Shown one piece after another: positions 1,207-33,327 of a stretch of 64,000 bases of DNA (position 1 is the first letter of the stretch; each line of letters opens with the position of its first letter). Both the position numbers and the translations under genes were made by a program. Source of the DNA: Pirellulales bacterium (GTDB taxonomy: Bacteria; Planctomycetota; Planctomycetia; Pirellulales; PNKZ01); the NCBI GenBank assembly GCA_036272935.1, contig DATAXP010000075.1, positions 20,511-84,510 of the forward strand, read 5' to 3'. The notes below the pieces were generated by a model. That model was not told where the DNA came from and did not search any database. It was given only the letters and a program-made list of their open reading frames with translations.

Positions 1207-3027
1207 TCATTTACCTGGCAGAATCCACACCTTGGACGCGCGTATTTCGCCGGGGTTGTCGCCCGGAGCGCACTCCCCGCAACGGGCCAGCAGCAGATGC
1301 GTTGGACCGTCGCTGGGATGATGCACGAGACTTGCCGTGAGCATCTCGGCAGCCACGGCGTTCTGACCCGCGTCGAACAGTGCGAGCGCCTGCTCGTACT
1401 CGTCGCGCAAGCGATCCCATGATTCGCCTGGTTCGCACAATTCGAACAGCTCGACAGGCTCGGCAATGTTCACGACGCGCACACTTCCCAAGCGTCGCGT
1501 GGCAAACGAGGCGGGCAACTGGGCGCGCGTGGCCGCCGTGATGAGCAGGTCGATCTTCAAATACTTGGTCGCCCCTTCGACCCGGCTGGCCAGATTGACC
1601 GTCGGCCCCAGCGGACCGTATTTGAATTTGCGCGCCGTGCCGACATTGCCGACCCGAGCGGTCCCCGTGTTGATGCCAATGCCCACGTGCATCGGCTCGC
1701 CGAGCACCCCGGCCCAGCGCTCGTTGACCGCGGGGAGGGCTTTGAGCATCGCCAGCGCCGCGGAACAGGCGCGCTGGGCATCGTTGGAGTGCGACACCGG
1801 CGCGCCCCACATCGCGATCAGCTCGTCGCCGATGTAGTCGACCAACACGCCTTCATGCTCGACGACGCAATCGCTCAGCGCGCTCATCGTGTCGGAAATC
1901 CATTCGACCGTGCGGGCGGAGCCGAGCACTTCGCTCAGCCGGCTGAACCCGCGGATGTCGCAGAACAGGATCGTCACCTGGGCGTCGCGCCCTTCGAGCA
2001 GCCCGGGGTCGACGGCCAAGGAACGTGAAAGCTCGGGCGTGAAGAACTGCTCGAAGCGAATCTGGGCGGCCAACAGCGCCTGCTCTTCCTTGAGCCGCGC
2101 GATCCCTGCCGCCACGCCGCACGCCAGTGTTTCGACCAGTTGGGCCTCGAGCGGCGAGATTTCCACCGTGTCGCTGATGTTCGTGCTGCGGCGGTCGCCG
2201 TAGAGCACGCCAAGCACTTCGCCCGAGCGATCGAGAATCGGCGCCGCAACCACCGCTTGCAGGCCGAGCATGCTGGCCGTGATGTCGCGCGAAGGCACCT
2301 GCCACATCGTCCGTCGCTGAAAGAAAACCTCGCCGAGGATTTTGCGGCTGGGACGCCAATCGACTGCCGGTTCAAATCCGCTTCGGGCAAATCGGCCGGC
2401 GTGCTGGGCAGCGGTCGTCCACGAGCCGCCCTGGCGGAGCATCACGGCACCGGCATCGAGGTGCACCAGTTCGACGACGCCTCGCGCCGCGTGCTCAAAG
2501 AAATCGTTCGAGCTGATCGCGCTGCCCAACAGCGCCGTCACTGCCTGGAACCAGGCGAGTAACTCCGACGGTCCATGGGGCGCCTGCGGCAATGGACCCA
2601 GGCTGGTGGCGCGGATCGCCGGGGCGACGGTGGCCGAGGGCAATGCATTGAGTTCCGCGGCGCTGACCGACGAAGGGTCAGCCGCCTCGACGCGAATCAG
2701 GTACTCGCCATGGACGATGCACGCCGGCAGGTGCAGACGCGCCGCCGCTTCGCCTTGCACCAGGCCGCCATCTTCCAGCCGCACCGCCACGCTGCGGTGC
2801 AGGTTGCGCAGCTCGACGCCTTGTGGCGTCGGCACCAGGCGCAGGAACGATCGCGGCATCGAACGATCATCGACCGGCGCGATGGCCAGGCGGTCGCCAT
2901 CGGTGACGTGTTGCAGTTCGAGCAGCGGCTCGCCGTCGCGCTGCCGGCCGATTTCGAGCGGCTGCGTCAGTTCGTGCTGCCGCAGTAGTTGTCGCCCGCG
3001 GTAGATGCTGACATGACTCGCGACCAT
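1207..3027 (-). CDS. class III adenylate/guanylate cyclase with a central GAF-like region, a possible FHA-like N-terminus and a C-terminal helical/TPR-like tail
   Basis: Cyclase motifs VTILFCDIRGFSRLSE, GDELIAMWGAP, GIGINTGTARVGNVG, GPTVNLASRVEG. The upstream roughly 170 aa look GAF-like. The N-terminal roughly 110 aa are only weakly FHA-like. Confidence 0.85.
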   Translation of the reverse strand: MVASHVSIYRGRQLLRQHELTQPLEIGRQRDGEPLLELQHVTDGDRLAIAPVDDRSMPRSFLRLVPTPQGVELRNLHRSVAVRLEDGGLVQGEAAARLHLPACIVHGEYLIRVEAADPSSVSAAELNALPSATVAPAIRATSLGPLPQAPHGPSELLAWFQAVTALLGSAISSNDFFEHAARGVVELVHLDAGAVMLRQGGSWTTAAQHAGRFARSGFEPAVDWRPSRKILGEVFFQRRTMWQVPSRDITASMLGLQAVVAAPILDRSGEVLGVLYGDRRSTNISDTVEISPLEAQLVETLACGVAAGIARLKEEQALLAAQIRFEQFFTPELSRSLAVDPGLLEGRDAQVTILFCDIRGFSRLSEVLGSARTVEWISDTMSALSDCVVEHEGVLVDYIGDELIAMWGAPVSHSNDAQRACSAALAMLKALPAVNERWAGVLGEPMHVGIGINTGTARVGNVGTARKFKYGPLGPTVNLASRVEGATKYLKIDLLITAATRAQLPASFATRRLGSVRVVNIAEPVELFELCEPGESWDRLRDEYEQALALFDAGQNAVAAEMLTASLVHHPSDGPTHLLLARCGECAPGDNPGEIRASKVWILPGK

Positions 3028-3104: not shown

Positions 3105-3893
3105 TTACAACTGGCTGCCGTCGAGAATGAAATCGTTGCGCGTCGGTGTCTCGGCATGCGCCGGATTCGAGTCGAAGCGAATCTCGGGCAGTTCGTGCAC
3201 CGCCTTTTGCAAGGCCGACTCCCAGCGCATGTGGACGTCGATCAAGTCGGCGTCTTTGCTGGTGAGCTGCCGGCGGCGCGTGATCTGGAACTCGTCGGCA
3301 TAGTATTGCAGCATGTCGATGGGCGGGCCGACCGTGACGTTCGAGCGCATGGTCGAATCGATCGAGATCAGCGCGTACTTTGCCGCCTCGTTGAGCGTGG
3401 TGCGATCGTAGCGGATGCCACGATCGAGGATCGGTCGGCCGTATTTACATTCGCCGATCTGCAAGTACGGCGATTCTTCGGTGGCCGACAGTGGGTTCCC
3501 CTGCGGGTAGATCAGGTACAGATTCGGAGGCTCGCCGCGAATCTGTCCGCCGAGCAACAGGTGAATGTTGAATTTGAAGTCGTCGCGCTCCAGGTAAGAC
3601 CGGTCGATCTCGGCGACGCGATGGACCTGCTCGCCGATGACGCGCGTGGCGTCGTACATCGACTGCGCAGCCGCAAGACCTTCGCCGCGCTCAAAGTCGC
3701 GGCGTAACAGCGTCATCACCGACTGCGAAATCGACAAGCTGCCGCTGGTGAGCACGATCAGCGCTCGCTCGCCGGGCTGCACAAACGTGTAGGTCTTGCG
3801 ACAGACATTGACCTGGTCGAACCCGGCGTTGGTACGCGAGTCGGACGCCATCACCAGGCCTTCATACGTCATGATCCCCAGACAATAGGTCAT
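3105..3893 (-). CDS. Anbu-type proteasome beta-subunit homologue (Ntn hydrolase)
   Basis: Starts MTYCLGIMTYEGLVMASDSRTNAG...CRKTYTF. The Thr sits directly after Met with no propeptide, and Asp and Lys fall near the proteasome triad positions. Length is 262 aa. It neighbours ATP-grasp, alpha-E and transglutaminase genes. Confidence 0.85.
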   Translation of the reverse strand: MTYCLGIMTYEGLVMASDSRTNAGFDQVNVCRKTYTFVQPGERALIVLTSGSLSISQSVMTLLRRDFERGEGLAAAQSMYDATRVIGEQVHRVAEIDRSYLERDDFKFNIHLLLGGQIRGEPPNLYLIYPQGNPLSATEESPYLQIGECKYGRPILDRGIRYDRTTLNEAAKYALISIDSTMRSNVTVGPPIDMLQYYADEFQITRRRQLTSKDADLIDVHMRWESALQKAVHELPEIRFDSNPAHAETPTRNDFILDGSQL

Positions 3894-5076: not shown

Positions 5077-6600
5077 ATGGCAACGCAGAATGCGGCCATG
5101 AGCGACGATCGAACTGCTGCGCATCCGTTCGAAGGCTACGAACTGGGGCTGGCATTCGATGAAATGTTCGAATCGACCGGCAGCCCGCGCCGGCACTATC
5201 GGCCGCTGTACCAACGGCTGCTCGGGCTAAGCGCCGACGAAATCCGCCGCCGCAAGGCGATGTCGGACCTGTCGATGTTGCAGCACGGCGTGGGCTTCAC
5301 GGTGTATCGGCAAGAGGAAGGGATCGAGCGCGTGTGGCCGATGGACCCCGTGCCGCGGATCCTGCCGGCCGAGGAATGGGCTTGGATCGAACAAGGGCTG
5401 ATTCAGCGGATCACGGCGCTCAACCTGTTTCTGCACGACATCTATCACCAGCAGTTTATCCTGCGCGATCGGGTGCTCGACGCCGGCCTGATTTACGACG
5501 GCACGTTCTTCCGCCGCGAGTTCATGGGGGCCACCGTCCCGCGCGACATCTACATCCACGTCTGCGGGAGCGACCTGATCCGCGACCGTGACGGCAGCTA
5601 CCTGGTACTCGAAGACAACTGTCGCACCCCATCGGGCGTCAGCTACATGCTGCAAAACCGGCAAGTGCTGAAGCGCGTCTTCCCGCAAATCTTCGATCAC
5701 TACAACGTCCGCGCGACCGACGATTATCCAGCGGCCCTGTTGGACGTGCTGCGCTACTTGGCCCCCGGCGGCCGCCACGATCCGACGATCGTGCTGCTCA
5801 GCCCCGGCATCTACAACTCGGCGTACTTCGAGCACACATTCCTGGCGCAGCGCATGGGGATTGAGTTGGTCGAAGGGCGCGACCTGGTGGTCGACCAGAA
5901 CCGGGTGTACATGCGCACCACCCGGGGACTGGCGCGCGTCGATGTCATTTATCGCCGCGTCGACGACGACTTCCTCGATCCGCTGACGTTCCGGGCCGAT
6001 ACTTGCCTGGGCGTGCCGGGGCTCGTGAATGCGTATCGCGCCGGCAACGTCGCCTTGGCCAACAGTATCGGGACTGGGATCGCCGATGATAAAGGCATTT
6101 ACCCGTTCGTTCCCGAGATGATCCGCTACTACCTGAAGCAGGAGCCGATCCTGCCAAATGTCGAGACGTTCCGTCCGCAGATTGCGAGCCACCGCAGCCA
6201 CGTACTGGAAAACCTCGATCGGCTGGTGGTGAAGACGGTGAACGAATCGGGAGGTTCGGGGATGCTGATCGGTCCGGCCTCGACCGCCGCCCAGCGGGAA
6301 GAATTCGCGGCGCTGATCAAGGCCCGGCCGCGCGATTTTATCGCTCAGCCGACCGTGCAGCTTTCGGTCCATCCGACATTCGTTGACGGCCGGCTCGAAG
6401 GACGGCATGTCGACCTGCGGCCATTCGTGCTCTATGGCGAGCGCGTCACCGTCATCCCTGGCGCCTTGACGCGCGTGGCGCTGCGCCGCGGCAGCCTCGT
6501 CGTGAACAGCTCGCAAGGAGGCGGCAGCAAAGATACCTGGGTGCTGGCCGACGAGCGGGCGGCCGACAGTGTTCCCGTCGTCACAATTCCCTCAACGTAA
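5077..6600 (+). CDS. circularly permuted ATP-grasp type 2 protein (COG2308-like amidoligase)
   Basis: 507 aa, with the family-typical length and N-terminus (YDEMF-like [20 protein letters not shown]) and [17 protein letters not shown]. It is followed 18 nt later by an alpha-E gene, the conserved partner. Confidence 0.8.
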
Positions 6601-20315: not shown

Positions 20316-21995
20316 TCAGTGCCGGTCGAGGCTGCCCGATTTGTAGATCGCGCGCAGCAGGCGTAGTCCCAGGAACAGACTGGTGACGCAGCCCATCGCC
20401 CCCAGCAGCGAGAACTCCGAAATGCCCGGCAAGGTTAGCAGCGGCGCGACGCGATGCGCGCACAGCAGGGTCGAGCCGACGAACAGCGCGCTGGTAATCA
20501 TGCCGTAGACCAGCCGGTTCACCGACGGCTCGAGGCCGCGGTGCTCGAGGTGTACGTCGAACTTACCGCTTTGAATCTGCTCGAAAATCTCGATCAGCCC
20601 ACGCGGCAGCATCTCGACGAATCGTTCCAACTCGCGCGTAAAACGCTGCAGCTTGCGGAAGCGGCGTTGCGGCGAATTACGCCGCCAGATCATGGTCTTC
20701 TGATACGGCAGAATGACATCGATTAGCCGGAATTGCGGGTCCAGCAGGTGCGACGTCCCTTCGAGCATCACCAGCACCTTGATCAATAGCGCCAGCCGTG
20801 GCGGCAGCGTGATGTGGAACCGGCGAATGATCTCGACCATTTCGTTCAAGGCTGCCGAGAGGTCGAAGTTGTCGAGCTGCACCTGGGTGTAGTGCATCAC
20901 GTAGTCCGACACTTCGACCATCAAGGCCGATTCGTCGAGTCCCGGCGGCACCTTGCCGACGCGCATGATGATCGATGTCAGCCGTCGGGCGTCGTGCTGG
21001 GCGATCGCCAGCAGCAGTTCTTCCAGGTCCTCGCGCAGGTCCTCGTCGATCTGGCCGATCATGCCGAAGTCAATCAGCCCGATGCGGTCGCCGGGCAGCA
21101 CCATGATGTTCCCGGGATGCGGATCGGCATGGAACAGCCCCAGCGTGAAAATCATTTCCATGTAGGCATCGGCGCCGTGCCGGGCGACCAACGGGCGGTC
21201 GACGCCGGCGGCATCCAAGCGATCGACTTCGCTGAGCTTGATTCCTTCGAGATACTGCATCGTCAGTACCCGCGTGGTCGACAGCTCGGCGAACGCGCGC
21301 GGAATGCAGACGCGGTCGTCGTCGGCGAAGTGCTGATCGAACTGCTGCATGGCGCGCTGCTCGCGGCCGAAATCGAGCTCGCGGCGAAGCGTGCGCTGGA
21401 ACTCGGCAACCACCTCGCGCGGACGGTAGTTCTCGAACTCGGGCAATTGCTCGGCCAAGGCCGCCAGCCCGGCAAGCACTTCGAGATCGACACCGATCTT
21501 CTCTTCGATGGCCGGGTGCTGCACCTTGACCGCCACGCGCTCGCCGCTGGTGAGCCGGGCCAGGTGCACCTGTGCGATCGACGCGCTGGCCAGCGGCTGA
21601 TCGTTGAACTCGGCGAACAGTTGCTCGATCGGGCGTCGCAACTCCGTTTCGATCGTCGCGCGCACCGCCGGCGTCGGATCGGCGCGCGTTTCATCTTGCA
21701 GATGGGCTAGCTCATCGGCCAGCTCAACACTCACCAGGTCGGGACGTGTGCTGAGCACCTGACCGAGCTTCACGAACGTCGGCCCCAGCTCATTGAGCGC
21801 CAGCCGCACGCGGCAGGACGCGCTTTGCCGGGCCAGCAGTTCGCCGTCGGGGTCGCGGAATATGCCCTTGGCGAACTCGAGATCGAAGCGGCTGATCCAA
21901 TCGGCCAGGCCGTACTTGCTCAGCACCGCGAGAATCTCTCGCCAGCGGTTCACGTGGCGATAGATTTGCGGAATAGTCGTAATTTTCATCGCCAA
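20316..21995 (-). CDS. ABC1/UbiB-family atypical protein kinase with C-terminal transmembrane helices
   Basis: FVKLGQVLSTRPDLV, ASIAQVHLARL, VAVKVQHP, FHADPHPGNIMV. Hydrophobic C-terminus. Confidence 0.88.
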   Translation of the reverse strand: MAMKITTIPQIYRHVNRWREILAVLSKYGLADWISRFDLEFAKGIFRDPDGELLARQSASCRVRLALNELGPTFVKLGQVLSTRPDLVSVELADELAHLQDETRADPTPAVRATIETELRRPIEQLFAEFNDQPLASASIAQVHLARLTSGERVAVKVQHPAIEEKIGVDLEVLAGLAALAEQLPEFENYRPREVVAEFQRTLRRELDFGREQRAMQQFDQHFADDDRVCIPRAFAELSTTRVLTMQYLEGIKLSEVDRLDAAGVDRPLVARHGADAYMEMIFTLGLFHADPHPGNIMVLPGDRIGLIDFGMIGQIDEDLREDLEELLLAIAQHDARRLTSIIMRVGKVPPGLDESALMVEVSDYVMHYTQVQLDNFDLSAALNEMVEIIRRFHITLPPRLALLIKVLVMLEGTSHLLDPQFRLIDVILPYQKTMIWRRNSPQRRFRKLQRFTRELERFVEMLPRGLIEIFEQIQSGKFDVHLEHRGLEPSVNRLVYGMITSALFVGSTLLCAHRVAPLLTLPGISEFSLLGAMGCVTSLFLGLRLLRAIYKSGSLDRH

Positions 21996-22089
21996 GCGGC
22001 GGCGTTTCGCGTGCAGTGGTTCGTTGCGTCGAGCTTCGGTGTTAGACTATTGTAGCTTGATGGGGCACGAAAGACTTGGGGGTAACTCG

Positions 22090-23343
22090 ATGCGCACCGC
22101 GCTGGTGATTGTGGCAACCATATTGCTGTCCGTTGCCGCCAGCGTCGCTGCGGTGCATTGGTTGCCGATGCGGCTCGATTCGTCGGCCGGGCTCACCGGT
22201 GCGAATTCTCCCCTTTCTCCGCCGGGCACGACGCAGCAGCCGGCGGTCGTCGAAACTCCACAGGTTGTGGCGCTGGGTACGTTACAGCCCGCCTCGGGAG
22301 TGATCCAAGTCAGCGGCACCGCCGGCGAAGAGCTGGCCGAAGTGAAGGTCGCCGAAGGAGACAACGTCAAGAAAGGGGACGTGCTCGCGGTGCTCGGCAG
22401 CCACACGCTGCGCAAGGCCGAGGTCGATGCTTCGCAGGCGGCACTCGAGGAGGCTGAAAGCCAATTGCCGATCGAGCGTGCCGTCGGCGATGCCCAAGTG
22501 GCCGAAGCCGAGGTGAACCTTAAGCAGGTCGATTTGCAGCGCAGCCAAATCGCGATGCAGCAGGACAAGATCAAGTCGCTGCGCAACAACCTGGCCGTAG
22601 CGCAGGACGATCTGAAGCGCATGCAGGCGGTCGACGAGTCGATCGTTTCGACCCAACAGCGGCAGAAGCAGCAGTTGGTGGTCGACCAAGCACAGACCGA
22701 ATTGCAATCGGCCGAGCGAGGACTGGAGAACTTCAAGAAGACCTGCGATTTGGAAACGAAGCTGGCCCAAGTGAAGTTGCAGGCGGCCAAGGCGTCGCGG
22801 CAGCGGATGATTGCCACCTTGCAGATCGAGTCGTTGAAGCGCGGCGTCGAATTGGCCAAGACAAAGCTCGAGCTGTCGCTGGTCCGCGCTCCCAGCGATG
22901 GCCGTATCTTCAAGGTGGTGATGCAGCCGGGTGAAACCACCGGCCAAGCTCCGATCCTGCGCATGGGATGTGTCGACCAGATGTACGCGGCAGCCGAGGT
23001 ATACGAAACCGACATCGGCCGCGTGCAACTGCACCAGAAAGCCAAGATCACAGGCGACGCACTGATCGACCCGGCCACGCAACGAAAGTACGCGATGACC
23101 GGCGAGGTCGTGCAGATCAGCACCACGGTTGCCAAGAACGAGGTCCGCAGCCTCGATCCGACCGATCGTGGCGATCTGCGCGTGGTCGAAGTGCGCGTGC
23201 GAATCGATCCGCAGTATCGCGAGGCGGCCGCCCGGCTGATCAACCTGCAAGTGACCGTGCGGATCGACACCGCCGCCGAGAGCGCCCGGGGCACGTCGAG
23301 CGCCACGGAACAGCCTGCGGAGCCCGCGCAAGACCAGCGATGA
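22090..23343 (+). CDS. DevB/HlyD-type membrane fusion (periplasmic adaptor) protein
   Basis: The ATG at 22090 follows a GGGGG run and gives the N-terminal anchor MRTALVIVATILLSVAASVAAV. A long coiled-coil middle is followed by a beta-barrel-like C-terminus. The stop overlaps the next start (ATGA). Confidence 0.8.
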   Translation: MRTALVIVATILLSVAASVAAVHWLPMRLDSSAGLTGANSPLSPPGTTQQPAVVETPQVVALGTLQPASGVIQVSGTAGEELAEVKVAEGDNVKKGDVLAVLGSHTLRKAEVDASQAALEEAESQLPIERAVGDAQVAEAEVNLKQVDLQRSQIAMQQDKIKSLRNNLAVAQDDLKRMQAVDESIVSTQQRQKQQLVVDQAQTELQSAERGLENFKKTCDLETKLAQVKLQAAKASRQRMIATLQIESLKRGVELAKTKLELSLVRAPSDGRIFKVVMQPGETTGQAPILRMGCVDQMYAAAEVYETDIGRVQLHQKAKITGDALIDPATQRKYAMTGEVVQISTTVAKNEVRSLDPTDRGDLRVVEVRVRIDPQYREAAARLINLQVTVRIDTAAESARGTSSATEQPAEPAQDQR

Positions 23344-24479
23344 AAACTCCGCTTGCCCTGCGCAACCTGGTGCACGAGCGCGTCCGGGCCGGGGTCGCGG
23401 TGGCCGGGGTCGCGTTCGCCGTCGTGCTCATTCTGATGCAGCTTGGGTTCTTCTTCTCGGTCGCGCGCACGGCGACGCTCGTCTACGACCGGCTGAACTT
23501 CGACCTGGCGATCGTGTCGAGCGATTACCTGCACATGGGCAAGGCGGGCATGATCCCCTTGGAACGCCTGTACCAGGCGCAAGACCTTCCCGAAGTCGCC
23601 GGCGCGTCTCCGTTCTGGGTCAGCTTCAACCTATGGCTCAATCCTGATCCGCGCAGCCACCAGCGACGCAGCATGATGATCCTGGCGTTCCGCCCCGACG
23701 ATGCGGTCGTGAACCTGCCGGAAGTCGAAAAATATCGCAACGACCTGAAAGAGCTGCGCACGGTGCTCGTTGATCGATTGTCGCGGCCGGAGTTCGGTCC
23801 GCACGGCCCCGGCGTGAGCACCGATATCGGCCAGACCGCGGTCCGTGTGATTGGCGAATACACGATGGGAACAGGCTTCAGCGCCGACGGCGCCGTGATG
23901 ACCAGTGATCGCACACTGTTCATGATCACGCCCATGTTGCCGCGCAATCGCGCCACGTTGGGGCTCATCTCGCTGCGCCCCGGCACCAACGCGCGACGCG
24001 TGAAAGAACGCCTCGAACAACTGCTGCCGCAAGACAGCCAGGTGATGACGCACGACGAACTGAACCGCTATGAACAGCACCACTGGGTCGTCAAGACCAG
24101 TGTCGGCGTTATCTTTGGCCTGGGGGTAGGCGTGGCGCTCGTCGTGGGCCTGGCGATCGTGTACCAGGTGCTGTCGAGCGACATTGCCAACCGTATGCCC
24201 GAATACGCGACGCTGATGGCCATGGGCTACGGTCGCCGGTACATCTCGGGCGTGGTGTTGCAGCAGGCGGTGTTGATGGCCCTGGCAGGGTTCGTGCCGG
24301 GCTGGCTCGTGTCGTACGTGCTATTCAAGGTGGCCGCGGCCGGGGCGAACCTACCGATGGCGATGACACCGGCACTGACGCTGGCCGTGCTGGCATTGAA
24401 CCTGACCATGTGCGTCACTTCCGGACTGCTGTCGCTACGCAAAGTCAACACCGCCGATCCAGCGGACCTGTTCACATGA
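23340..24479 (+). CDS. DevC/FtsX-type ABC exporter permease, paralogue 1
   Basis: MKTPLALRNLVHERVRAGVAVAGVAFAVVLILMQLGF, a large periplasmic loop, and three C-terminal TM helices. ATGA overlaps at both ends. Confidence 0.8.
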   Translation: MKTPLALRNLVHERVRAGVAVAGVAFAVVLILMQLGFFFSVARTATLVYDRLNFDLAIVSSDYLHMGKAGMIPLERLYQAQDLPEVAGASPFWVSFNLWLNPDPRSHQRRSMMILAFRPDDAVVNLPEVEKYRNDLKELRTVLVDRLSRPEFGPHGPGVSTDIGQTAVRVIGEYTMGTGFSADGAVMTSDRTLFMITPMLPRNRATLGLISLRPGTNARRVKERLEQLLPQDSQVMTHDELNRYEQHHWVVKTSVGVIFGLGVGVALVVGLAIVYQVLSSDIANRMPEYATLMAMGYGRRYISGVVLQQAVLMALAGFVPGWLVSYVLFKVAAAGANLPMAMTPALTLAVLALNLTMCVTSGLLSLRKVNTADPADLFT

Positions 24480-25651
24480 GCCGCACGCCGCTGGCCTGGA
24501 AGAACCTGACGCATGAGTATCGCCGGCTGCTGCTGGCGGTCGCGGGCATCGGCTTCGCCGTGCTGCTGATGTTCATGCAGCTCGGGTTTCGTGGCGCGCT
24601 ATTGGAGAGCACGGTGCTGCTGCCCCAGGCGTTCAATGCCGACCTGGTGATCGTCAGCAAGACGAAGTTCGCGCTGGTGATCCGCGAAACGTTCTCGCGG
24701 CAAACACTGTTCCAGGCGCGCTCGTGTCCGGGCATCGACGAGGTGTATCCGCTGTACATGGAACTGCGCGAGTCGTCGTGGCGGCTGCCGCGCGTGATGC
24801 GCCACTCGTTGCCGGTGCGGACGCTGGCGTTCAATCCGCGCGATCCGGTGCTGCTCGATGGCGACGTGCTCCGGGCACGCGACGAACTGATGATCCCCGA
24901 CACGGTGCTGTTCGATCGGCTGTCGAAGGCCGACTACGGCAAGCCGGTCGTCGGCGAGACGGCGTACCTGGCCGATCACCGAGTGCGTGTGGTTGGCACG
25001 TTCGCGCTGGGGACCGATTTCGCCACCGACGCGACGGTGATCATGAGCGATCGCGCTTACGCCCAGTTCTTCTTTCCGCCGGGAGCAGCCGACAGCGCCC
25101 TGTCGCAGATCGATATCGGCCTGCTGACGCTAGAGCAGAAAATCAAGCGCGATCCGGCAGAAGTGCGGCGGGTACAAACGCGGCTGCGCGAGATGCTCCC
25201 TGAAAACGTACGCGTGCTCACCAAGGCCGAGTACATTGCCGCCGAACAGGACTTCTGGAATCGCAGCACGCCGGTGGGCTACGTGTTCGGCTTTGGGTTG
25301 GTGCTAGGCTTCGTCGTCGGCGTGATCATCTGCTACCAGGTGCTGTATGCCGACGTGACCGATCACATGCCCGAGTTCGCCACGCTCAAGGCGATGGGAT
25401 ATCGCACCCGGTTCTTCGTGCGGCTGATCATGCAAGAGTCGCTGTATCTTTCGGTGCTGGGGTTCATCCCGGCGCTGGTGTGCAGCGAAGCAATGTACAA
25501 GACCTTGGAGTATGTCACCGGCCTGCCGTTGAACCTGAGCGTCGGCCGGGCCTTGGCTGTGCTGTGGCTGGCCGTGGCGATGTGTGCCGTGTCCGGCTTG
25601 TTGACCTTGCGGCGCCTGCTGGCCGCCGATCCCGCGGAGTTGTTCCGATGA
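24476..25651 (+). CDS. DevC/FtsX-type ABC exporter permease, paralogue 2
   Basis: MSRTPLAWKNLTHEYRRLLLAVAGIGFAVLLMFMQLGF, colinear with paralogue 1. ATGA overlaps at both ends. Confidence 0.8.
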   Translation: MSRTPLAWKNLTHEYRRLLLAVAGIGFAVLLMFMQLGFRGALLESTVLLPQAFNADLVIVSKTKFALVIRETFSRQTLFQARSCPGIDEVYPLYMELRESSWRLPRVMRHSLPVRTLAFNPRDPVLLDGDVLRARDELMIPDTVLFDRLSKADYGKPVVGETAYLADHRVRVVGTFALGTDFATDATVIMSDRAYAQFFFPPGAADSALSQIDIGLLTLEQKIKRDPAEVRRVQTRLREMLPENVRVLTKAEYIAAEQDFWNRSTPVGYVFGFGLVLGFVVGVIICYQVLYADVTDHMPEFATLKAMGYRTRFFVRLIMQESLYLSVLGFIPALVCSEAMYKTLEYVTGLPLNLSVGRALAVLWLAVAMCAVSGLLTLRRLLAADPAELFR

Positions 25652-26826
25652 GCGTTTCCACATCGCCCGACCGCAGCGGCCTGCACCCGGAAATGGCGAC
25701 TCGCCAAATTCCCTCGACCGACGGCCGACCGCAGGTTCGCGAGCTGGCGATCAAGATTCGCAAGCTGAACCACTCGTTCGGCACCGGCGAACTGGCCAAG
25801 CAGGTGCTGTTTGAGAACAACCTCGACCTGACGCGCGGCGAGATCGTGATCATGACCGGCCCCTCAGGCTCGGGAAAGACCACGCTGCTCACACTCATCG
25901 GCGGACTGCGCACCGTGCAGCAAGGAAGCCTGCAAGTGCTGGGAAACGAGATGCACGGACTCACGTCGAAGGAGCTGATGCGCGCACGGCGGAACATCGG
26001 GTTCATCTTCCAGGCGCACAACCTGTTCGCCTCGCTGACCGCGCAGGAGAACGTGCGGATGTCGTTGGAGCTGACGCACAACAATCGCTCGGAGATGAAC
26101 GACCGCGCCGCCGAGATGCTCAAGCTGCTCGGCCTGGGACATCGCATCCATTACAAGCCGGGTTCGCTATCGGGCGGACAGCGGCAGCGAGTGGCGATCG
26201 CCAGGGCCTTGGTGAGCCGGCCGAAACTGATCCTGGCCGACGAGCCGACCGCGGCCCTGGACAAGCAGTCGGGCCGCGACGTGGTCGATTTGCTGCGTCG
26301 CGTCGCGCAGGAAGACTTGTGCACCATCCTGATGGTGACTCACGACAACCGTATTCTCGACGTCGCCGATCGCATCGTGAATATGGTCGACGGGCACGTG
26401 GTGTCCGACGTGGTGGTGAGCGCCGCGGCCGTGGTCTGCGAGTTCCTGCGCAGTTGCCCGCTGTTCGAGGGCATGACGCCGGCTACCCTGCTGGCGGTGG
26501 CCGACAAGGTAATGATCGAACGGCACTCGGCCGGCGACGTCGTGATCCGCCAAGGCGAACAAGGAGACAAGTTCTACATCATTCACCACGGCGAGGCCGA
26601 GGTGCTCGTCGAGCACAGCGGCGCAACGAAGCGCATTGCCGAACTGAAGGAACGCGATTCCTTTGGCGAAGCGGCCTTGCTGCGCAACGAACCGCGCAAC
26701 GCGACCGTGCGAATCACCAAGGACGCCGAACTGTACGTGCTCGGCAAGGAAGACTTCCGTCACGTGATCGAAACGAGCGAGACCTTCGCCGAAGAGTTGC
26801 GAAAGATTCTGTTCCAGCGGCAGTGA
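25648..26826 (+). CDS. DevA-type ABC ATPase fused to a C-terminal cyclic-nucleotide-binding domain
   Basis: Walker A GPSGSGKTTLL, signature LSGGQRQRVAIARAL, Walker B LILADEPTAALD. The C-terminal part reads FLRSCPLFEGM...GDKFYIIHHGEAEV...FGEAALLRNEPRNATVRI, which is cNMP-binding. The start ATG at 25648 overlaps the previous stop. Confidence 0.85.
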   Translation: MSVSTSPDRSGLHPEMATRQIPSTDGRPQVRELAIKIRKLNHSFGTGELAKQVLFENNLDLTRGEIVIMTGPSGSGKTTLLTLIGGLRTVQQGSLQVLGNEMHGLTSKELMRARRNIGFIFQAHNLFASLTAQENVRMSLELTHNNRSEMNDRAAEMLKLLGLGHRIHYKPGSLSGGQRQRVAIARALVSRPKLILADEPTAALDKQSGRDVVDLLRRVAQEDLCTILMVTHDNRILDVADRIVNMVDGHVVSDVVVSAAAVVCEFLRSCPLFEGMTPATLLAVADKVMIERHSAGDVVIRQGEQGDKFYIIHHGEAEVLVEHSGATKRIAELKERDSFGEAALLRNEPRNATVRITKDAELYVLGKEDFRHVIETSETFAEELRKILFQRQ

Positions 26827-26851: not shown

Positions 26852-28366
26852 CTATCTCAGCAATTGTTCGGGAAAGAAGACGCGGCGAGCCGAATGGACG
26901 ACTTCTGGCGTCGCGGGGCGTTCGACCGGTATCGGCTCCAATTCGGATAGCGGAATCGCCTTTGGTTCGGCCGCCTCATCCGGGGAATGAGCCTCGGAGA
27001 GCGCGGTCGTGTCCGGCTCGGGTGTCGGCTGCGCGGCCGTGGGGGTCGTTTCGTGGGACGACCCAGCGCCGGAGCCGCAGCACTCGATGGCCAGCTCGCC
27101 TTGCAGTTGCCGCAGATGGACCCGGGCCTGCTCGACAGCGCTGATCGCCTCGATGGTCTGGGCATCGGTTTGTAGACGGCTGATCTTGGCCACCGAGATT
27201 TCGGCGAAATTCGTGCCGCCGGTAGTGTTCAGCTTGTTCAGGTCGGCCAGGCGCTGGTCCCACGCATGGCTGCGTTCTACGGCGAGTTGCACCTGGCGCA
27301 CCCGGGCGTGGTAGGTTTCGATCGCTTCGCGGATCTGCTCGCCGATCTCGCGCTCCCGCCGGCCGCGCAGATCGAGCAACTGTCCGCGCCGAGCCGCGAT
27401 CTCGCGGTCGATCAGTGCCGGCATCAGGCAGCGGACCAGGAGCGCGTGTCCCGGCGCCGCTTCGCCCAGCAGGCCGTTGGCGGCGCGCAGATAGCTGCGC
27501 GTCAAATCCAGCGTGTCGCGATCCAACGACCACACGAGCAGTCGCAGCACGTTGAGTTCCGGCCGCTGCGATAGGCCGCGCTGCACTTCGCTCTCGATGT
27601 CCATCGGCACGAACTCAGCCGACAGCTTCGTGTCGGGCCAGAACCTCACGCCGGGTTCATGCGATTCCATTCCCAGCAGCCGCCGCAACTCGTGGTTCCC
27701 CTGCGTCAGGGACAGTTCCAGATCTTCCGTCTGCGAACGGACCTCGACCTTGCGACGTTCAAATTCCGAGGCGTCGAAGGGGATCTGCAAACCTTGCCGG
27801 TGCAACTGGGCGATCCTGTCGAGCATCTGGTCGAGCTCGTGGCCGACGCGATCGAGCACGTTGCGCTTCGCCTCCCCTTCGGCCAGGCGGTAGTAAAGCT
27901 GCATCGCGGTGCCGGCAGCATCGTTCTGCAACTCGGCGGCGGCGCCGGTGAGCACCTGCGAGCGCAATGGCGCCGCGCGGTCATGACGCGAACCACCGGA
28001 CGACACGCCGCGCTCGCGCACCATCAGGCTCGCCAGCGGCGCGGCGCGGGCCGCCATGCACTGGCACTCGATCGGCGTGAGCGCGTAGTAGTGCGCCGTG
28101 GCGGCGGGCCCCGGCGAGCCGGTCGTCGCATCCCAGGCCATCGTGCCGCGCTCCACCGCCGGCAGCGCCTCTTCGACCCAATGCGAAGCCGCTGAACCGG
28201 AGCAACACGACGAGCCCCCGCTGCGATGGATGGCGCAGCCTCCGCCGGCCACTGCAAGCGTGGCCATGCCGAGCCCCAACGCCACGACCAATAGCATGCG
28301 CCCAACGCGCATCGTCCACCTTCGGCTGGTGTCGAATCGATAAAATCGCCAACGCATGGGGTTCAT
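26852..28366 (-). CDS. TolC-like outer membrane efflux protein (probable lipoprotein) with an acidic/Pro-rich C-terminal tail
   Basis: Two OEP-like helical repeats (LYYRLAEGEAKRNVLDRV..., ...ISAVEQARVHLRQLQG). An internal start at complement 28312 gives MRVGRMLLVVALGLGMATLAVAGGGC. It is convergent with the ABC ATPase gene, 25 bp away. Confidence 0.65.
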   Translation of the reverse strand: MNPMRWRFYRFDTSRRWTMRVGRMLLVVALGLGMATLAVAGGGCAIHRSGGSSCCSGSAASHWVEEALPAVERGTMAWDATTGSPGPAATAHYYALTPIECQCMAARAAPLASLMVRERGVSSGGSRHDRAAPLRSQVLTGAAAELQNDAAGTAMQLYYRLAEGEAKRNVLDRVGHELDQMLDRIAQLHRQGLQIPFDASEFERRKVEVRSQTEDLELSLTQGNHELRRLLGMESHEPGVRFWPDTKLSAEFVPMDIESEVQRGLSQRPELNVLRLLVWSLDRDTLDLTRSYLRAANGLLGEAAPGHALLVRCLMPALIDREIAARRGQLLDLRGRREREIGEQIREAIETYHARVRQVQLAVERSHAWDQRLADLNKLNTTGGTNFAEISVAKISRLQTDAQTIEAISAVEQARVHLRQLQGELAIECCGSGAGSSHETTPTAAQPTPEPDTTALSEAHSPDEAAEPKAIPLSELEPIPVERPATPEVVHSARRVFFPEQLLR

Positions 28367-28481: not shown

Positions 28482-29477
28482 CTACGGCGAGCGTCGTATC
28501 GCTCGGGCGTAACCGTACTCCAAGAACCAATGCCAGGCGGCCTCGGCGGCCTGGCGGGCCGGTCGCGGCGCGTAGCCTAGCTCGGCGGCCGCCCGCGCGT
28601 AACTGAAGTGGTGCGGCAGACTTGAAAGTTCGGTCGCCGCCGAGTTGATTAATGGCTCGCGACCGGTCACGCGATGCCACAGGTCTCCAGAGCGCCCCAC
28701 CACCCACACCATCATGGGACCAGCACGCACGACCGGACCGCGCGAACCTGCAACCTCGGCAAACATTCTCCAGGCTTCCAGATACCGTAGCGGCTCCCCC
28801 CCCAGCACGTACCGTCGCCCGGCCTTGCCCCGATCCATGGCACGCAAGATACCGTCGGCAACGTCGCGCACATCGCAAAAATCGTTGCCGCCGCGCGGCG
28901 CCAGCATCGGCCGCGCCGCCACCACATCCAGCAGCATTCGCCCACTCGATGGCTTCCAATCCCAGGGGCCGAGCATGAACGCCGGATTCACGATCACCGC
29001 GTCGAGCCCCTCGCGCACCAGGTCGAGCACCACCGCCTCTCCCTGTCGCTTGCTTTGCACGTAGGGATAGCGAACCGCGGCGTCGGCTGGAGTCTCTTCG
29101 TCGGCCGGCTGGGCTCGAGTCCCCAGCCCCAGCGTATCGACGGTCGATATGTGGACCATCCGCGCGCCGGCATCGCGTGCCGCGCGGGCCACGTTGCGCG
29201 TCCCCTCGACGTTGATCGCCCGATGCGTGTCGAGCCCTGACCAGCCGATGTGCACGTGACCCGCGGCGTGGATCACTCGATCGACACCGCGCATCGCCTT
29301 CCGCAGGCATCCGGCATCGCAGACGTCGCCGACGACGATTTCCACGTCGAGCCCAGCCAGCGGCTTGTCGGCGCTGGCCGAGCGCCTCAGGACGCGCACC
29401 GCCCTGCCGCGCTCCAGCGCAAGCCGCACCACGTTATTGCCGAGCAAGCCCGTTGCCCCGGTAACCAAAAGAACCAT
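28482..29477 (-). CDS. NAD-dependent epimerase/dehydratase (extended SDR) family protein
   Basis: MVLLVTGATGLLGNNVV Rossmann motif. YxxxK region YPYVQSKRQGE. Confidence 0.85.
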   Translation of the reverse strand: MVLLVTGATGLLGNNVVRLALERGRAVRVLRRSASADKPLAGLDVEIVVGDVCDAGCLRKAMRGVDRVIHAAGHVHIGWSGLDTHRAINVEGTRNVARAARDAGARMVHISTVDTLGLGTRAQPADEETPADAAVRYPYVQSKRQGEAVVLDLVREGLDAVIVNPAFMLGPWDWKPSSGRMLLDVVAARPMLAPRGGNDFCDVRDVADGILRAMDRGKAGRRYVLGGEPLRYLEAWRMFAEVAGSRGPVVRAGPMMVWVVGRSGDLWHRVTGREPLINSAATELSSLPHHFSYARAAAELGYAPRPARQAAEAAWHWFLEYGYARAIRRSP

Positions 29478-29524
29478 GTGAGCAGTAGTGATACGTCGAT
29501 GCTTAGCCGCCGCGTTCGCTTATC

Positions 29525-30646
29525 CTACGCGGCACGTGCCGAGGGAGCCACTATGCGGCGCTCGGCAATTCTGCGCACCAGTCGAGCCACTTCAGCCGCG
29601 GCATGGGGCATGGCCATGGTCCGCATCCCCTCTCGCAACTTCTGGCGCGAGCGCGGATCGACCGCCAGCCGCAACAGTTGATCGGCCAGCTCGCCGGCCG
29701 GATCTGTGGCGCGCCGGAAGTCGACCGCCCGGCACGCACCGTGCCGGGCGTAAACCACCGCGTTGCGCAACTGATGATCGTCGGCAGCGTGCGGATATGG
29801 AACTACGATTGCCGTCGAGCCGCACGCGGCCAATTCGGCCAAGGTCGTCCCGCCGGCGCGCGAGATCACCACGTCCGCATCGGCCAATAGCTCGGCAACG
29901 TTCGGAAAGAACGCTCGCAGCGTTGCCCAGCGTCCCCGCTGCGCGTAGCGATCGCGCGTCGTGGCCAACTCGGCCGCGCCCGTTTGATGGAACACCCCCC
30001 ATTGCTCGAATCGAGCGCCAAGGCGGGCAATCGCTTCGGGGACCGTGCGATTCAAGTCGGCCGAGCCGTTGCTGCCCCCCAGCACGACGAGCCGCGGTGG
30101 GCGCGATCCGAGCTTCGCTGCTGCTCGCTGCGAGAACATCGAGCGCACCGGATTCCCGGTGTGCCGAAAGCGATCCTGGCGAATGTTCAACCATGGCTGG
30201 GCCTCTGCCATCGCCGCGCACACCAGTTCGGCATGTGGTGCGAGCCAGCGGGTCACGCGACCCGGCAACGCGTTCTGTTCCAGCAACACCAGCGGCGTGC
30301 GGGTGGCGTGCGCCGCACGTGCCATCGGCACGCTCGACCAACCACCGAGGCCGACCACCACGTCGGCCGGATGCTTTGCCAACCATCGTCGGGCTGCGGC
30401 GACCCCGGCGACATAGTCCAGCGCAAAGTGGGGCATCTTCCACGGCCTGCGTGGCCACGCCCGGCAACGGAACGCGACATATTGGTGGCCGTGCTGCTCG
30501 ACGATGCGCCGCTCCATGGCGCCGCCGGCACCCGCGAACGTGATTCGTATGCAGTCGCCCAGAGCGCCGAGCCGCTCGGCCACCGCCAAGCCCGGGAACA
30601 AGTGCCCACCAGTCCCACCGCCGCAAAAAATGATGTGAGCATTCAT
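29525..30646 (-). CDS. murG: UDP-N-acetylglucosamine--N-acetylmuramyl-(pentapeptide) pyrophosphoryl-undecaprenol GlcNAc transferase
   Basis: MNAHIIFCGGGTGGHLFPGLAVAE from the ATG at complement 30644-30646. ISRAGGTTLAELA...HQLRNA. The 578-aa track ORF is an artefactual upstream extension into mraY. Confidence 0.9.
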   Translation of the reverse strand: MNAHIIFCGGGTGGHLFPGLAVAERLGALGDCIRITFAGAGGAMERRIVEQHGHQYVAFRCRAWPRRPWKMPHFALDYVAGVAAARRWLAKHPADVVVGLGGWSSVPMARAAHATRTPLVLLEQNALPGRVTRWLAPHAELVCAAMAEAQPWLNIRQDRFRHTGNPVRSMFSQRAAAKLGSRPPRLVVLGGSNGSADLNRTVPEAIARLGARFEQWGVFHQTGAAELATTRDRYAQRGRWATLRAFFPNVAELLADADVVISRAGGTTLAELAACGSTAIVVPYPHAADDHQLRNAVVYARHGACRAVDFRRATDPAGELADQLLRLAVDPRSRQKLREGMRTMAMPHAAAEVARLVRRIAERRIVAPSARAA

Positions 30647-30657
30647 GGCTGGTTGCC

Positions 30658-31644
30658 TCAAAGCGGCCACAGGATGTACGAGGCCGCCACACCGACGATC
30701 GCGCAACACGCCGCCGCGTTGCGGAATGCCGCCACGATGCTCGGCTCCGACCAGCCAAGAAACTGAAAGTGATGATGCAGCGGCGCACATCGCAGCAGAC
30801 GACGTTGCGTCGCACGGAACCACGCAACCTGCGCGATCACACTGAGCGTCTCGACGACAAACACCCCGGCAACTAGCGGCCACAAGAACTGCACATCGGC
30901 CACGATCGCCAAGTACCCGAGCAATCCCCCCAAGGCCAGCGAGCCGGTATCGCCCATGAATACCCGCGCCGGATGGCGGTTGAACCACAGGAAGCCGGCA
31001 AGCACGCCGACCAGCGCGCCCAGCAGCACGAGTAACTCGCCGCGGTTCGCAGCGGCGGCGGTGGCGACGACCATCAACGCCAAGGCACCGGCCGACCACA
31101 ACGAGCATCCTGCAGCCAGGCCGTCGAGCCCGTCGGTCAGGTTCACGGCGTTGGCCGAGGCGACCATCACCAACGTCGCCCACGGGATCATCGACCACGC
31201 AGCCGCACCGTCGTCGCGTAGGTGCGCCAGGCCCGCGGCAACCATCGCCGCCACGACACATTGCCCGGCGAGCTTTTGCTGCCGCGAGAGGCCGCTGCCA
31301 TGCTTCACGCGTTTGCGGAGATCATCGACCGCGCCAACTGCCGCCATCCCGGCCGTGGCCACGAGTGCCAGCAGCACCGTGCCGCAACGGAGATCGGCTA
31401 GCACAACCACTGTGAGCATCCACACTGCAACGATCACCGCGCCCCCCATCGACGGCGTGGCATGCTTGGCGGCGTGCAGTTGCCGCAGCATCGGCGAAGG
31501 GCTGGCGTTGGTGTCGGTACACAGCCGCCGCAATCGTCTGATCGCCCAAGGCATGACGATCAGCATCAGCACGAGTGCGACGCCACCGGCCAGCGCGGCG
31601 CGGACGACGGGACCGGCTACATTCGTCAACGGGTCGAAAAACAC
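30658..31644 (-). CDS. mraY: phospho-N-acetylmuramoyl-pentapeptide transferase
   Basis: NAVNLTDGLDGLA, MGDTGSLALGG, HHHFQ. I prefer the GTG at complement 31642-31644, which has GAGGAG 8 nt upstream, over the ATG at 31752 that adds an Arg-rich 36 aa. Confidence 0.85.
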   Translation of the reverse strand: MFFDPLTNVAGPVVRAALAGGVALVLMLIVMPWAIRRLRRLCTDTNASPSPMLRQLHAAKHATPSMGGAVIVAVWMLTVVVLADLRCGTVLLALVATAGMAAVGAVDDLRKRVKHGSGLSRQQKLAGQCVVAAMVAAGLAHLRDDGAAAWSMIPWATLVMVASANAVNLTDGLDGLAAGCSLWSAGALALMVVATAAAANRGELLVLLGALVGVLAGFLWFNRHPARVFMGDTGSLALGGLLGYLAIVADVQFLWPLVAGVFVVETLSVIAQVAWFRATQRRLLRCAPLHHHFQFLGWSEPSIVAAFRNAAACCAIVGVAASYILWPL

Positions 31645-31950
31645 CGGGTCGCTCCTCGCTCTCGGTGGCTTGGGGTGCGACGCCGAGAGTCGGCCGGGTG
31701 GGGCTCGCGACTCTCGGCGGCACCGGTGATCCCTGAGACGCCGGAGCGGCAACGTTTGCCGCTCCGGCGCTCAGTCAAAAGGCTCCGCCGAGAAGCACCT
31801 GCCGGAGCGGTTGACCCAGTAACCGCGGACCCGGCAAGTTGAAGCTTCGACCCAGGAGGAGGGGTAGCAATCCCAAGGTCCCGCAACCTCGAGAACGCCT
31901 TCGGCGGAGCCCGCAATGGTTCCTTGCAATTAGTCGGTTGCGTTCTTGTT

Positions 31951-33327
31951 TCAAGCCACGTTCAGCAGCGCCAGGCAACGTTCAAGCCCCACGGCCCGCG
32001 ATCCTTTGACCAGCAATACATCGTCAGACGTTACGACCTGCCGGGCCACGTCGGCCGCCTCGCAGGCATCGCGGCAGGTGAACACGCATTGTTCGGCCAT
32101 CCCGGCAGCCCGCGCCCCGGCAATCACGTGCTCGGCATGTTCGCCGCAGGCGATCAGCACGTCGGCACCGCACACGGTCACCACCTGGTCGCCCACCTGG
32201 CGATGAAGCTGCGGCGTTTCGGGACCAAGCTCGCGCATGTCGCCACATAGGGCAATCCGCCGACCGGCGGCGTCGAAATCGCGCAGCAGTTCGAGCGCCG
32301 CCCGCATCGCCGTGGGGCTGGCGTTGTAGCAATCGTTGATGATCGTCGCCCCGCGCCACTCGCGCACTTCGCAGCGCATCTGCGGCGAACGGAAGTCGGC
32401 CAACCCGGTGGTGATCGCCGGCCACGTCACGCCCAGGTGTCGGGCGACCGCAATGGCCATCAGCGCGCTGGTAAGATGGTGACGACCCCAGACCGGCACA
32501 GCCATCTCGTGGCCGTTGGCGGTGAATTCGAGCAGGCCGCCGGAGCTGCGCACGCCGGTAGCTGCGTAGTCGGCCTCGGCGCTGCGTCCTACGGTGACCA
32601 CGCGCGCCGTGCAGCGCCCCACCAACGGTCGTATCCGCGCATCGTCAGCCGATAGAATCGCCAGCCCGTCGCGCGGCAGCGCGTCGAGCAGTTCCGCTTT
32701 CGCTCCGGCCAATGCCTCGCGGCTGCCGAAGGTGCCCAGGTGTGCCTCGCCGAGTTGCGTGATCACACCGACCTGCGGGCGACAAATATCGGCCAAGGCG
32801 GCAATTTCGCCGGCGGCGCTGGCTCCCAGCTCGACCACGGCATAGTCGTGGTCGTGCCGCCAGCCGAGCATGCTCAGCGGCAGCCCCACATGATTGTTGT
32901 AGTTCCGCGGACTGGCGCTACCGCTTTGTCCCGCGCCCAGCGCCGCGTGGATCATTTGCCGCGTCGTGGTCTTGCCGACGCTGCCGGTCACCGCGACTAC
33001 GCGCCCTTGAAAACGGTTCCGCTGCCAGCGCGCCGCGGCGACCAACGCCTCGGCAGCATCGTGTACTTCGATCGCCCAGCGTCCTGCCGGCGGCTCCGCG
33101 GCGCGGCTCGACACCGTGCCCGCCGCTCCTTGGCGATACGCATCGCCGATGAACTCGGCACCGTCGACGCGCATGCCGGGCAGAGCCCAGAACACGTCGC
33201 CGGGTCGCACGTCGCGGCTATCGATCACCACGCGGCGAATCGCCGTGTGCCGTCCCTTGCCGCCGGCGCCCGTTCGGCAACGGCCTTGCGTGGCGGCGAT
33301 CAGTTCGTCGAGCGTAAGCCGGGACAT
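31951..33327 (-). CDS. murF: UDP-N-acetylmuramoyl-tripeptide--D-alanyl-D-alanine ligase
   Basis: VIDSRDVRPGDVFWALPG, VAVTGSVGKTTT, and overall Mur ligase layout. Confidence 0.9.
   Translation of the reverse strand: MSRLTLDELIAATQGRCRTGAGGKGRHTAIRRVVIDSRDVRPGDVFWALPGMRVDGAEFIGDAYRQGAAGTVSSRAAEPPAGRWAIEVHDAAEALVAAARWQRNRFQGRVVAVTGSVGKTTTRQMIHAALGAGQSGSASPRNYNNHVGLPLSMLGWRHDHDYAVVELGASAAGEIAALADICRPQVGVITQLGEAHLGTFGSREALAGAKAELLDALPRDGLAILSADDARIRPLVGRCTARVVTVGRSAEADYAATGVRSSGGLLEFTANGHEMAVPVWGRHHLTSALMAIAVARHLGVTWPAITTGLADFRSPQMRCEVREWRGATIINDCYNASPTAMRAALELLRDFDAAGRRIALCGDMRELGPETPQLHRQVGDQVVTVCGADVLIACGEHAEHVIAGARAAGMAEQCVFTCRDACEAADVARQVVTSDDVLLVKGSRAVGLERCLALLNVA

Follow-up and report, generated by a model that had tools for sequence, protein, structure and literature searches.

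A DevA-type exporter ATPase with a C-terminal cyclic-nucleotide-binding domain in a Pirellulales bacterium: a predicted second-messenger switch on an envelope pump

What does a cyclic-nucleotide-binding domain do at the end of the motor subunit of an exporter? The question is raised by a gene, here called devA~CNBD, in a stretch of 64,000 nucleotides (the window: positions 20,511 to 84,510 of the forward strand of contig DATAXP010000075.1, assembly GCA_036272935.1; G+C content 63.8%) from an uncultured Pirellulales bacterium. An initial annotation of the window had described the product as the ATPase of an ATP-binding cassette (ABC) exporter fused to a cyclic-nucleotide-binding domain, possibly a pump gated by cyclic AMP (cAMP) or cyclic GMP (cGMP). 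We find that the product of devA~CNBD is the ATPase subunit of a tripartite ABC exporter of the DevBCA type (MacB-like, type VII) and that its C-terminal extension is, judged from its sequence, a PKA/PKG-type cyclic-nucleotide-binding domain of canonical form whose phosphate-binding cassette is intact. The fusion is not new: it is a widespread and already catalogued architecture, common in Planctomycetota and Cyanobacteria. It is probable, in our estimate, that cAMP or cGMP binds this domain and thereby allosterically tunes ATP hydrolysis and the export of an envelope lipid or glycolipid.

The anatomy proposed at first, a DevA-like ATPase followed by a CAP/PKA-R-type domain of about 130 residues, holds well. 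The reading frame translates without interruption, every motif quoted for it lies at the expected position, and both halves score above curated cut-offs. Residues 35-251 match the NCBIfam DevA family TIGR02982 with 344.9 bits (cut-off 295.8), and the Pfam model ABC_tran (PF00005) matches with 125.6 bits. The ATPase domain carries the Walker A motif GPSGSGKTT (71-79), the Q-loop glutamine Q122, the signature LSGGQ (174-178), the Walker B motif with the catalytic glutamate (LILADE, 194-199), the D-loop ALD (203-205) and the H-loop VTHD (230-233). In an alignment of 34 homologues with 60-80% identity, on which the conservation of individual residues was read throughout, no variation is seen in Walker A, Q122, LSGGQ, Walker B with E199, ALD 203-205 or H232. 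The ATPase domain is followed by 137 further amino acids (256-392), which contain the strings FLRSCPLFEGM (266-276), GDKFYIIHHGEAEV (306-319) and FGEAALLRNEPRNATVRI (339-356). The domain search that had been suggested for this region returned the Pfam model cNMP_binding (PF00027) at 77.1 bits against a gathering score of 27.5, over residues 292-376 and nearly the whole profile (positions 3-88 of 89). At the other end of the protein, residues 1-34 (25648-25749) are predicted to be disordered, with a predicted local distance difference test score (pLDDT) below 50, and include a short ATR[EQ] motif kept in most planctomycete homologues.

The evidence that carries the sensor reading lies in the phosphate-binding cassette, FGEAALLRNEPRNATV. 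G340, E341, A343, L344, R350 and A352 are invariant among the homologues, P349, T353 and V354 are conserved in at least 90% of them, and the structural glycines G303, G306 and G315 of the same domain are invariant as well. The arginine and the glutamate of the cassette (R350 and E341), on which the initial annotation had made its case depend, are thus both intact and unchanged across the aligned homologues. The canonical motif GE.AL...R.A[ST] is present in 163 of the 193 fused proteins that we collected. When the 138-residue C-terminal tail was compared with solved structures using phmmer, it matched the binding domains of PKG, PKA-R, Epac, MloK1, SthK and HCN; its closest solved relatives are proven binders of cAMP or cGMP (PfPKG, PKA-R, PKG I, Epac2, MloK1, SthK and HCN). 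[quoted passage not shown] An AlphaFold2 (AF2) monomer model built on the 34-sequence alignment (mean pLDDT 81.4) gives the sensor domain pLDDT values of 83-92 over most of its length, falling to 73 at the last residues, and lays it out as helices 257-268 (αA) and 278-285, a β-roll (289-366) and C-terminal helices 367-376 and 378-391. In this model, helix 257-268 begins right after the ATPase strand 250-256, so that the two domains are joined without a flexible linker.

The partners of this ATPase define the class of the machine. devA~CNBD is the last gene of a four-gene operon on the + strand, devB-devC-devC-devA~CNBD, whose three junctions are all 4-base ATGA start/stop overlaps (devB/devC1 at 23340-23343) and in which no + strand terminator-like site was found; given these overlaps and the absence of an internal terminator, the four genes are almost certainly co-transcribed and translationally coupled. 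The true start of devB is probably an ATG near 22090, before a hydrophobic N-terminal helix. For the two permeases, the MacB_PCD score of DevC1 barely passes its cut-off of 27, and Pfam detected no periplasmic domain in DevC2. Two devC genes also occur in the relatives whose gene context we read at loci L081, L082, L083, L087 and P0212, and, with two paralogues, the permease would be a heterodimer like LolC/LolE. In Foldseek comparisons, the modelled ATPase domain superposes on YbbA at 1.3 Å, on MJ0796 at 1.6 Å, on LolD at 1.7-2.0 Å and on MacB at 2.2-2.4 Å, and also on FtsE and HrtA (1.3-3.0 Å over MacB, LolD, YbbA, FtsE and HrtA). This resemblance to MacB/LolD-type ATPases, together with the FtsX and MacB periplasmic-core domains of DevC, places the pump in the type VII, or mechanotransmission, class.

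How might the sensor act on such a pump? Two copies of the ATPase would sit as a homodimer under the DevC1/DevC2 heterodimer, which would give each pump two sensor domains. Binding of cAMP or cGMP to the cassette would close the C-terminal lid helix and shift the N-terminal helix of the sensor. This helix runs on from the ATPase core without a break, so that its movement would alter the dimerisation of the ATPase domains or their coupling to the permease, and this change would set ATP turnover and the rate of export. The cargo would be taken from the inner membrane or the periplasm, as for the DevBCA pump of heterocyst glycolipids. In PKA, Epac, HCN and MloK1 the unliganded domain is inhibitory and, by analogy, it is somewhat more likely that the nucleotide activates the pump than that it inhibits it. 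Control of ATPase-domain closure by C-terminal sensor domains is established for MetN and ModC (PMC10710835). The gating of export first suggested for this protein remains the best-supported reading, the gating itself, its ligand and its direction being what we infer. The more specific picture of a directly cyclic-mononucleotide-gated ABC motor, in which cAMP or cGMP on the DevA tail would switch an envelope-lipid exporter within seconds and so couple signalling to envelope remodelling, is in our judgement marginally favoured. The features discussed here and below are collected in Table 1.

Table 1 Coordinates and family assignments of the devA~CNBD operon and of the other genes considered in the window.
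Feature	Position	Strand	Description
GAF + class III nucleotide cyclase	1207..3027	-	Guanylate_cyc 75.5 bits; GAF 26.1 bits
ABC1/UbiB-type atypical kinase	20316..21995	-	Pfam ABC1 252.1 bits; divergent, upstream of the operon; same position in L081 and L087
devB	22024..23343 (ORF bounds)	+	Membrane-fusion protein (periplasmic adaptor); TIGR02971 214.6 bits (cut-off 129); Pfam HlyD_3, HlyD_D23
devC1	23340..24479	+	FtsX/MacB-type permease; TIGR01185 308.8 bits (cut-off 290.35); FtsX 59.2 bits; MacB_PCD 27.3 bits
devC2	24476..25651	+	Second FtsX-type permease; TIGR01185 322.6 bits (cut-off 290.35); Pfam FtsX 55.1 bits
devA~CNBD	25648..26826	+	392 aa; ATG 25648, stop 26824-26826; ATPase subunit with C-terminal cyclic-nucleotide-binding domain
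Nucleotide-binding (ATPase) domain of devA~CNBD	25750..26412	+	Residues 35-255
Cyclic-nucleotide-binding domain of devA~CNBD	26413..26823	+	Residues 256-392; PF00027
Phosphate-binding cassette of devA~CNBD	26662..26715	+	Residues 339-356; FGEAALLRNEPRNATVRI
Convergent downstream gene	26852..28366	-	486-504 aa; no family assignment; putative TolC-like
NAD-dependent epimerase/dehydratase	28482..29477	-	Pfam Epimerase 123 bits; also beside the cassette in L081, L083 and L087

A switch of this kind needs a ligand, and the initial annotation had pointed to the GAF-containing class III cyclase of the window (1207-3027) as its plausible source. The cyclase is there; nevertheless, it lies on the opposite strand ~19 kb upstream of devB and ~22 kb from devA~CNBD and is thus not a neighbour of the operon, and at this distance we rejected it as a linked ligand source. 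Its best solved match is Cya2 of Synechocystis (2W01), which we take to be a guanylyl cyclase. At the first substrate-specifying position it has Asp, where CyaB of P. aeruginosa and an engineered adenylyl cyclase form of Cya2 (6FHT) have Lys and wild-type Cya2 has Glu; at the second it has Gly, as in Cya2. The resulting Asp/Gly pair differs from the Lys/Asp or Lys/Thr of adenylyl cyclases and from the Glu/Gly of Cya2, so that the enzyme falls outside the canonical adenylyl cyclases. It may make cAMP, cGMP or another product, and is a possible but distant source of the ligand. Better support for a cyclase link comes from three relatives with cyclases adjacent to, or in the vicinity of, the cassette of exporter genes: a cyclase gene is divergently adjacent to it at locus P0212, a CHASE2-cyclase and a second protein with a cyclic-nucleotide-binding domain lie near it in Spirulina (L085), and a receiver-cyclase is found ~7.5 kb away in a member of the Isosphaeraceae (L086). 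The Spirulina sp. SIO3F2 locus (L085:2606-9488) brings together the CHASE2-cyclase, a FeeM-like N-acyl synthase fused to a cNMP-binding domain, devC and a two-sensor DevA, a cluster dense in cyclic-nucleotide signalling and lipid-like chemistry.

Several points weigh against a cAMP or cGMP switch. Of the 163 proteins with the canonical motif, 143 have Asn directly after the cassette arginine; Ala at this place is typical of cAMP sites (PKA) and Thr of cGMP sites (PKG), and because Asn is neither, the nucleotide specificity cannot be read from the sequence. Class III cyclases are numerous in planctomycete genomes, which makes their proximity to the cassette weak evidence. The geometry between the two domains is only moderately confident in the monomer model (predicted template-modelling score, pTM, 0.62), the direction of regulation is pure analogy, the outer-membrane partner of the pump is identified only tentatively (see below), and our literature search found no binding or activity data for any fused member. 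Finally, the nearest experimental case is HetC, the single ABC exporter with a cNMP-type domain that has been studied: this domain, although needed in vivo, bound guanosine tetraphosphate (ppGpp, Kd 59 µM) as well as GTP and GDP, but neither cAMP nor 2-oxoglutarate, in vitro (PMC10986499).

This last result, together with the variety of ligands bound by the CNB fold (PMC2246266) and the specificity left open by the unusual Asn, raises the alternative that the domain senses some other small molecule, be it ppGpp, GTP/GDP or a metabolite as in NtcA/FNR-type relatives, in which case the pump would follow the stringent or metabolic state of the cell. We consider this unlikely, although HetC is a warning not to take the ligand for granted. 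The full cyclic-phosphate cassette is kept, with G340, E341, R350 and A352 unchanged; the best matches of the tail are true cAMP or cGMP binders; and cyclase genes stand beside the cassette in several relatives. Moreover, the census recognised an ATPase-linked group, several members of which have an ABC-transporter-like membrane region, in which the cassette arginine is variable (PMC2246266, Table 1, family 16). We take this group to include HetC-like proteins; in the aligned homologues of devA~CNBD, by contrast, this arginine is invariant.

A second alternative, quite improbable in our view, would do without any ligand: the domain might be a structural module that clamps the ATPase dimer from beneath or docks another protein, with a vestigial ligand site. 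The C-terminal domains of MalK and MetN do form dimer contacts, and degenerate copies of the sensor are evidently tolerated, since 48 of the 65 second sensor domains in cyanobacterial fused proteins lack the canonical cassette, later tandem copies being mostly non-canonical too. Against this, 101 of the 120 cyanobacterial proteins have a canonical first domain, and the ligand-contact residues of the single planctomycete sensor stay invariant while overall identity falls to 60-80%. Purifying selection on exactly the residues that contact the ligand would be hard to explain if none were bound.

The nature of the cargo bears on a third alternative. Lipid-synthesis genes stand beside the cassette in several relatives, namely a giant polyketide synthase (PKS) gene in L082, genes for ketosynthase (KS), acyl carrier protein (ACP), OEP, epimerase and glycosyltransferases in L083, and genes for acyl-AMP ligases and desaturases in L084. 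These surroundings resemble the heterocyst-glycolipid DevBCA/HgdBC-HgdA region (PMC6161253), and the cargo is, by analogy, probably an envelope lipid or glycolipid. If the pump instead exported the cyclic nucleotide itself, with the domain as a cytoplasmic cargo sensor or loading site loosely like animal MRP4/5, which export cAMP/cGMP, both the nucleotide sensor on a transporter and the nearby cyclases would be accounted for, and we found nothing that supports this directly. It is very improbable: transporters of the MacB/DevC type (type VII) lack a route through the membrane for substrates from the cytoplasm and are loaded on the periplasmic side (PMC5985334), the substrates of DevBCA are glycolipids (PMC6161253), and the gene context of the relatives is one of lipid and glycolipid synthesis.

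How widespread is the fusion? All 120 best homologues of devA~CNBD, at 60-80% identity and from independent assemblies, are proteins of 345-406 aa with both PF00005 and PF00027, and separate hidden Markov models (HMMs) for the two halves place the ATPase first in every one of them. The domain junction, ...VNMVDGxxxSDVVV-xxAxxICEFLRxCPLF..., is itself conserved among the 34 aligned homologues, and in the window the junction DNA (26380-26480) reads through in one unremarkable open frame. An artefact of assembly or annotation, in which a lost stop or a frameshift would have joined two genes and for which we found no supporting evidence, can for practical purposes be dismissed, as the junction is conserved and the fusion recurs in 120 of 120 homologues that include one on a 5.96 Mb contig (L081) and one in Thalassoroseus pseudoceratinae, and in many cultured cyanobacteria.

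On the planctomycete side, fused members were found in Planctomycetia, in Isosphaeraceae and in the cultured Thalassoroseus pseudoceratinae (WP_166820162.1). A search with the Spirulina fused protein, which has two sensor domains, returned 120 proteins, all of them fused, 55 with one sensor, 57 with two and 8 with three or four; they include many proteins of cultured cyanobacteria, such as Nostoc minutum NIES-26, N. calcicola FACHB-389, Desmonostoc muscorum LEGE 12446, Chlorogloeopsis fritschii PCC 6912 and Lusitaniella coriacea LEGE 07157, as well as one from a gammaproteobacterial metagenome-assembled genome (MAG). A Chloroflexota MAG protein has three sensor domains. Across its two domains the window protein is colinear with one cyanobacterial member (41% identity, E 4e-90) and with the gammaproteobacterial one (42%), and the sensor is C-terminal in all 193 planctomycete-side and all 120 cyanobacterial fused proteins. 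In a library clustered at 50% identity and searched with residues 190-392, ~45 of the 150 best representatives were ATPase-to-sensor fusions and the remainder proteins with many tandem sensor domains, which took most of the highest ranks. By contrast, 80 loci retrieved by a generic Walker A/LSGGQ peptide scan all proved, when checked with HMMs, to encode plain ABC ATPases without a sensor, and a tblastn search against plasmids found unfused DevA only. In the cyanobacterial fused proteins P0306-P0423, the cassette of the first sensor usually reads RTAT, with Thr after the arginine as in cGMP-selective PKG sites. A metagenomic subgroup of the fused proteins (P0141, P0162 and P0171) has an insertion of 50-200 aa in the helical part of the ATPase domain.

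Members of the family already carry labels such as 'cyclic nucleotide-binding domain-containing protein' or 'DevA-like, part of ABC transporter' at NCBI and other sources. The fusion is thus neither rare nor overlooked, but widespread and automatically annotated. The initial annotation had remarked that it knew of no functional work, and our full-text literature search likewise found no functional or structural study of an ABC ATPase-sensor fusion. Among solved structures, we found no single chain with both domains.

The genes around the operon are conserved as well. The order UbiB/ABC1 kinase, devBCCA, hypothetical gene, epimerase and murG-mraY-murF-murE is common to the window, where the block from the epimerase to the mur homologues beyond it spans 28482-33327 (-), and to L081, the syntenic 5.96 Mb contig (78% identity). 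A planctomycete with 65% identity (L087) has the same order as far as murF, where the locus reading ends, with an additional PMT_2 glycosyltransferase gene between the epimerase gene and murG. This conserved, mur-flanked order hints at a link between the pump and the synthesis of the cell wall or envelope; the kinase is a conserved neighbour without an established link to the pump. Near the start of the window, and unrelated to the fusion, a proteasome-family protein (3105-3893, -, 23.4 bits) is encoded near a circularly permuted ATP-grasp protein (5077-6600, +, 540 bits), a pair reminiscent of the bacterial Anbu-type operon.

The convergent gene immediately downstream of devA~CNBD is the candidate for the outer-membrane partner. 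Its start is probably at 28312, which gives a product of 486 aa. The Pfam model OEP matches this product weakly (E=0.099). A low-confidence AF2 model (pLDDT 58.8) consists of long helical hairpins, and its top 41 Foldseek matches in the PDB are all TolC-family channels, at weak scores (E 1e-4 to 0.2, TM 0.22-0.29). Only four word-index matches were found for this protein. It has a syntenic homologue in L081 (49% identity), and L087 has in the same place a convergent hypothetical gene of 492 aa without a Pfam match, likened to it by position and length. In L083 a weak OEP match falls on the gene immediately upstream of devB, and a BLAST comparison of the window protein with this gene gave no match, which leaves the weak profile match and the weak fold matches as the basis of the TolC-like reading. 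The product may be a very divergent outer-membrane factor of the pump.

If the proposed regulation is correct, these proteins would be the first ABC transporters shown to be directly controlled by cAMP or cGMP; there seems to be no ABC transporter whose regulation by a cyclic mononucleotide has been shown by biochemistry or structure. It would constitute a post-translational switch on envelope export that bypasses transcription and would tie second-messenger signalling to remodelling of the outer envelope in planctomycetes, where the cassette adjoins a wall-synthesis cluster, and, by extension, in cyanobacteria and M. tuberculosis. In the latter, only 4 of 12 predicted cAMP effectors have been studied (PMC8856561). 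As the design is described for M. tuberculosis (Rv2564 and Rv0073) and occurs in cultured, genetically tractable cyanobacteria, one biochemical study could explain a widespread class. The value of the window alone is modest: databases already recognise the family, of which this uncultured Pirellulales bacterium supplies a further member. The architecture was already known, whereas the regulatory design is a prediction, and a reasonable one.

A close known relative of the pump is the DevBCA-HgdD heterocyst-glycolipid exporter of Anabaena/Nostoc. The DevA, DevC and DevB families are all matched by the window operon above their NCBIfam cut-offs, cyanobacterial DevA is 62-67% identical to the ATPase domain of devA~CNBD, and in both systems the ATPase forms a polypeptide of its own. 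The genes for epimerase, PKS and glycosyltransferase that lie near the cassette in the relatives recall the hgl/hgd region, where the Anabaena epimerase gene hgdA adjoins hgdB/hgdC (PMC6161253). However, classical DevA stops after the ATPase domain, whereas devA~CNBD adds the 137-aa sensor; DevBCA-HgdD has one devC instead of two; and its partner is the TolC-like HgdD, whereas the window pump has a tentative candidate. The cargo must also differ, because the planctomycete host has no heterocysts.

A second parallel is found in M. tuberculosis, where Rv2563/Rv2564 (GlnQ) and Rv0072/Rv0073 pair an ABC ATPase with a MacB-like permease and a regulatory domain has been drawn on the ATPase (PMC7761784); for Rv2564 the presence of PF00027 is recorded (PMC4886424). 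The likeness of Rv2564 and Rv0073 to devA~CNBD is drawn from published descriptions of their parts. McCue et al., in Genome Res in 2000, reportedly classed both as cNMP-binding proteins. They are functionally uncharacterised as regards cAMP, and their host is an actinobacterium that lacks an outer-membrane factor and a DevB adaptor of the type found in the window.

[quoted passage not shown] It differs in that this domain is N-terminal, on a single-chain transporter that contains a (C39) peptidase and has a different ABC fold; devA~CNBD has neither a peptidase nor a membrane domain, and its sensor is C-terminal. In the latter respect it resembles MetN (C2 domain), ModC, MalK and OpuCA (CBS domains that bind cyclic di-AMP), in which a C-terminal sensor on the ATPase controls closure (PMC10710835). 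These are, however, importers whose sensors have other folds and ligands, and MetN, MalK and CysA align with the devA~CNBD model in the ATPase part only (root-mean-square deviation ~12 Å over the full length). The sensor itself finds its homologues in MloK1, SthK and the HCN/CNG channels, which have a homologous C-terminal binding domain with the same cassette and lid helix, and in which an N-terminal helix signals to a membrane machine. There, the machine is a passive channel gated through the C-linker, whereas in devA~CNBD the output would be an ATPase motor.

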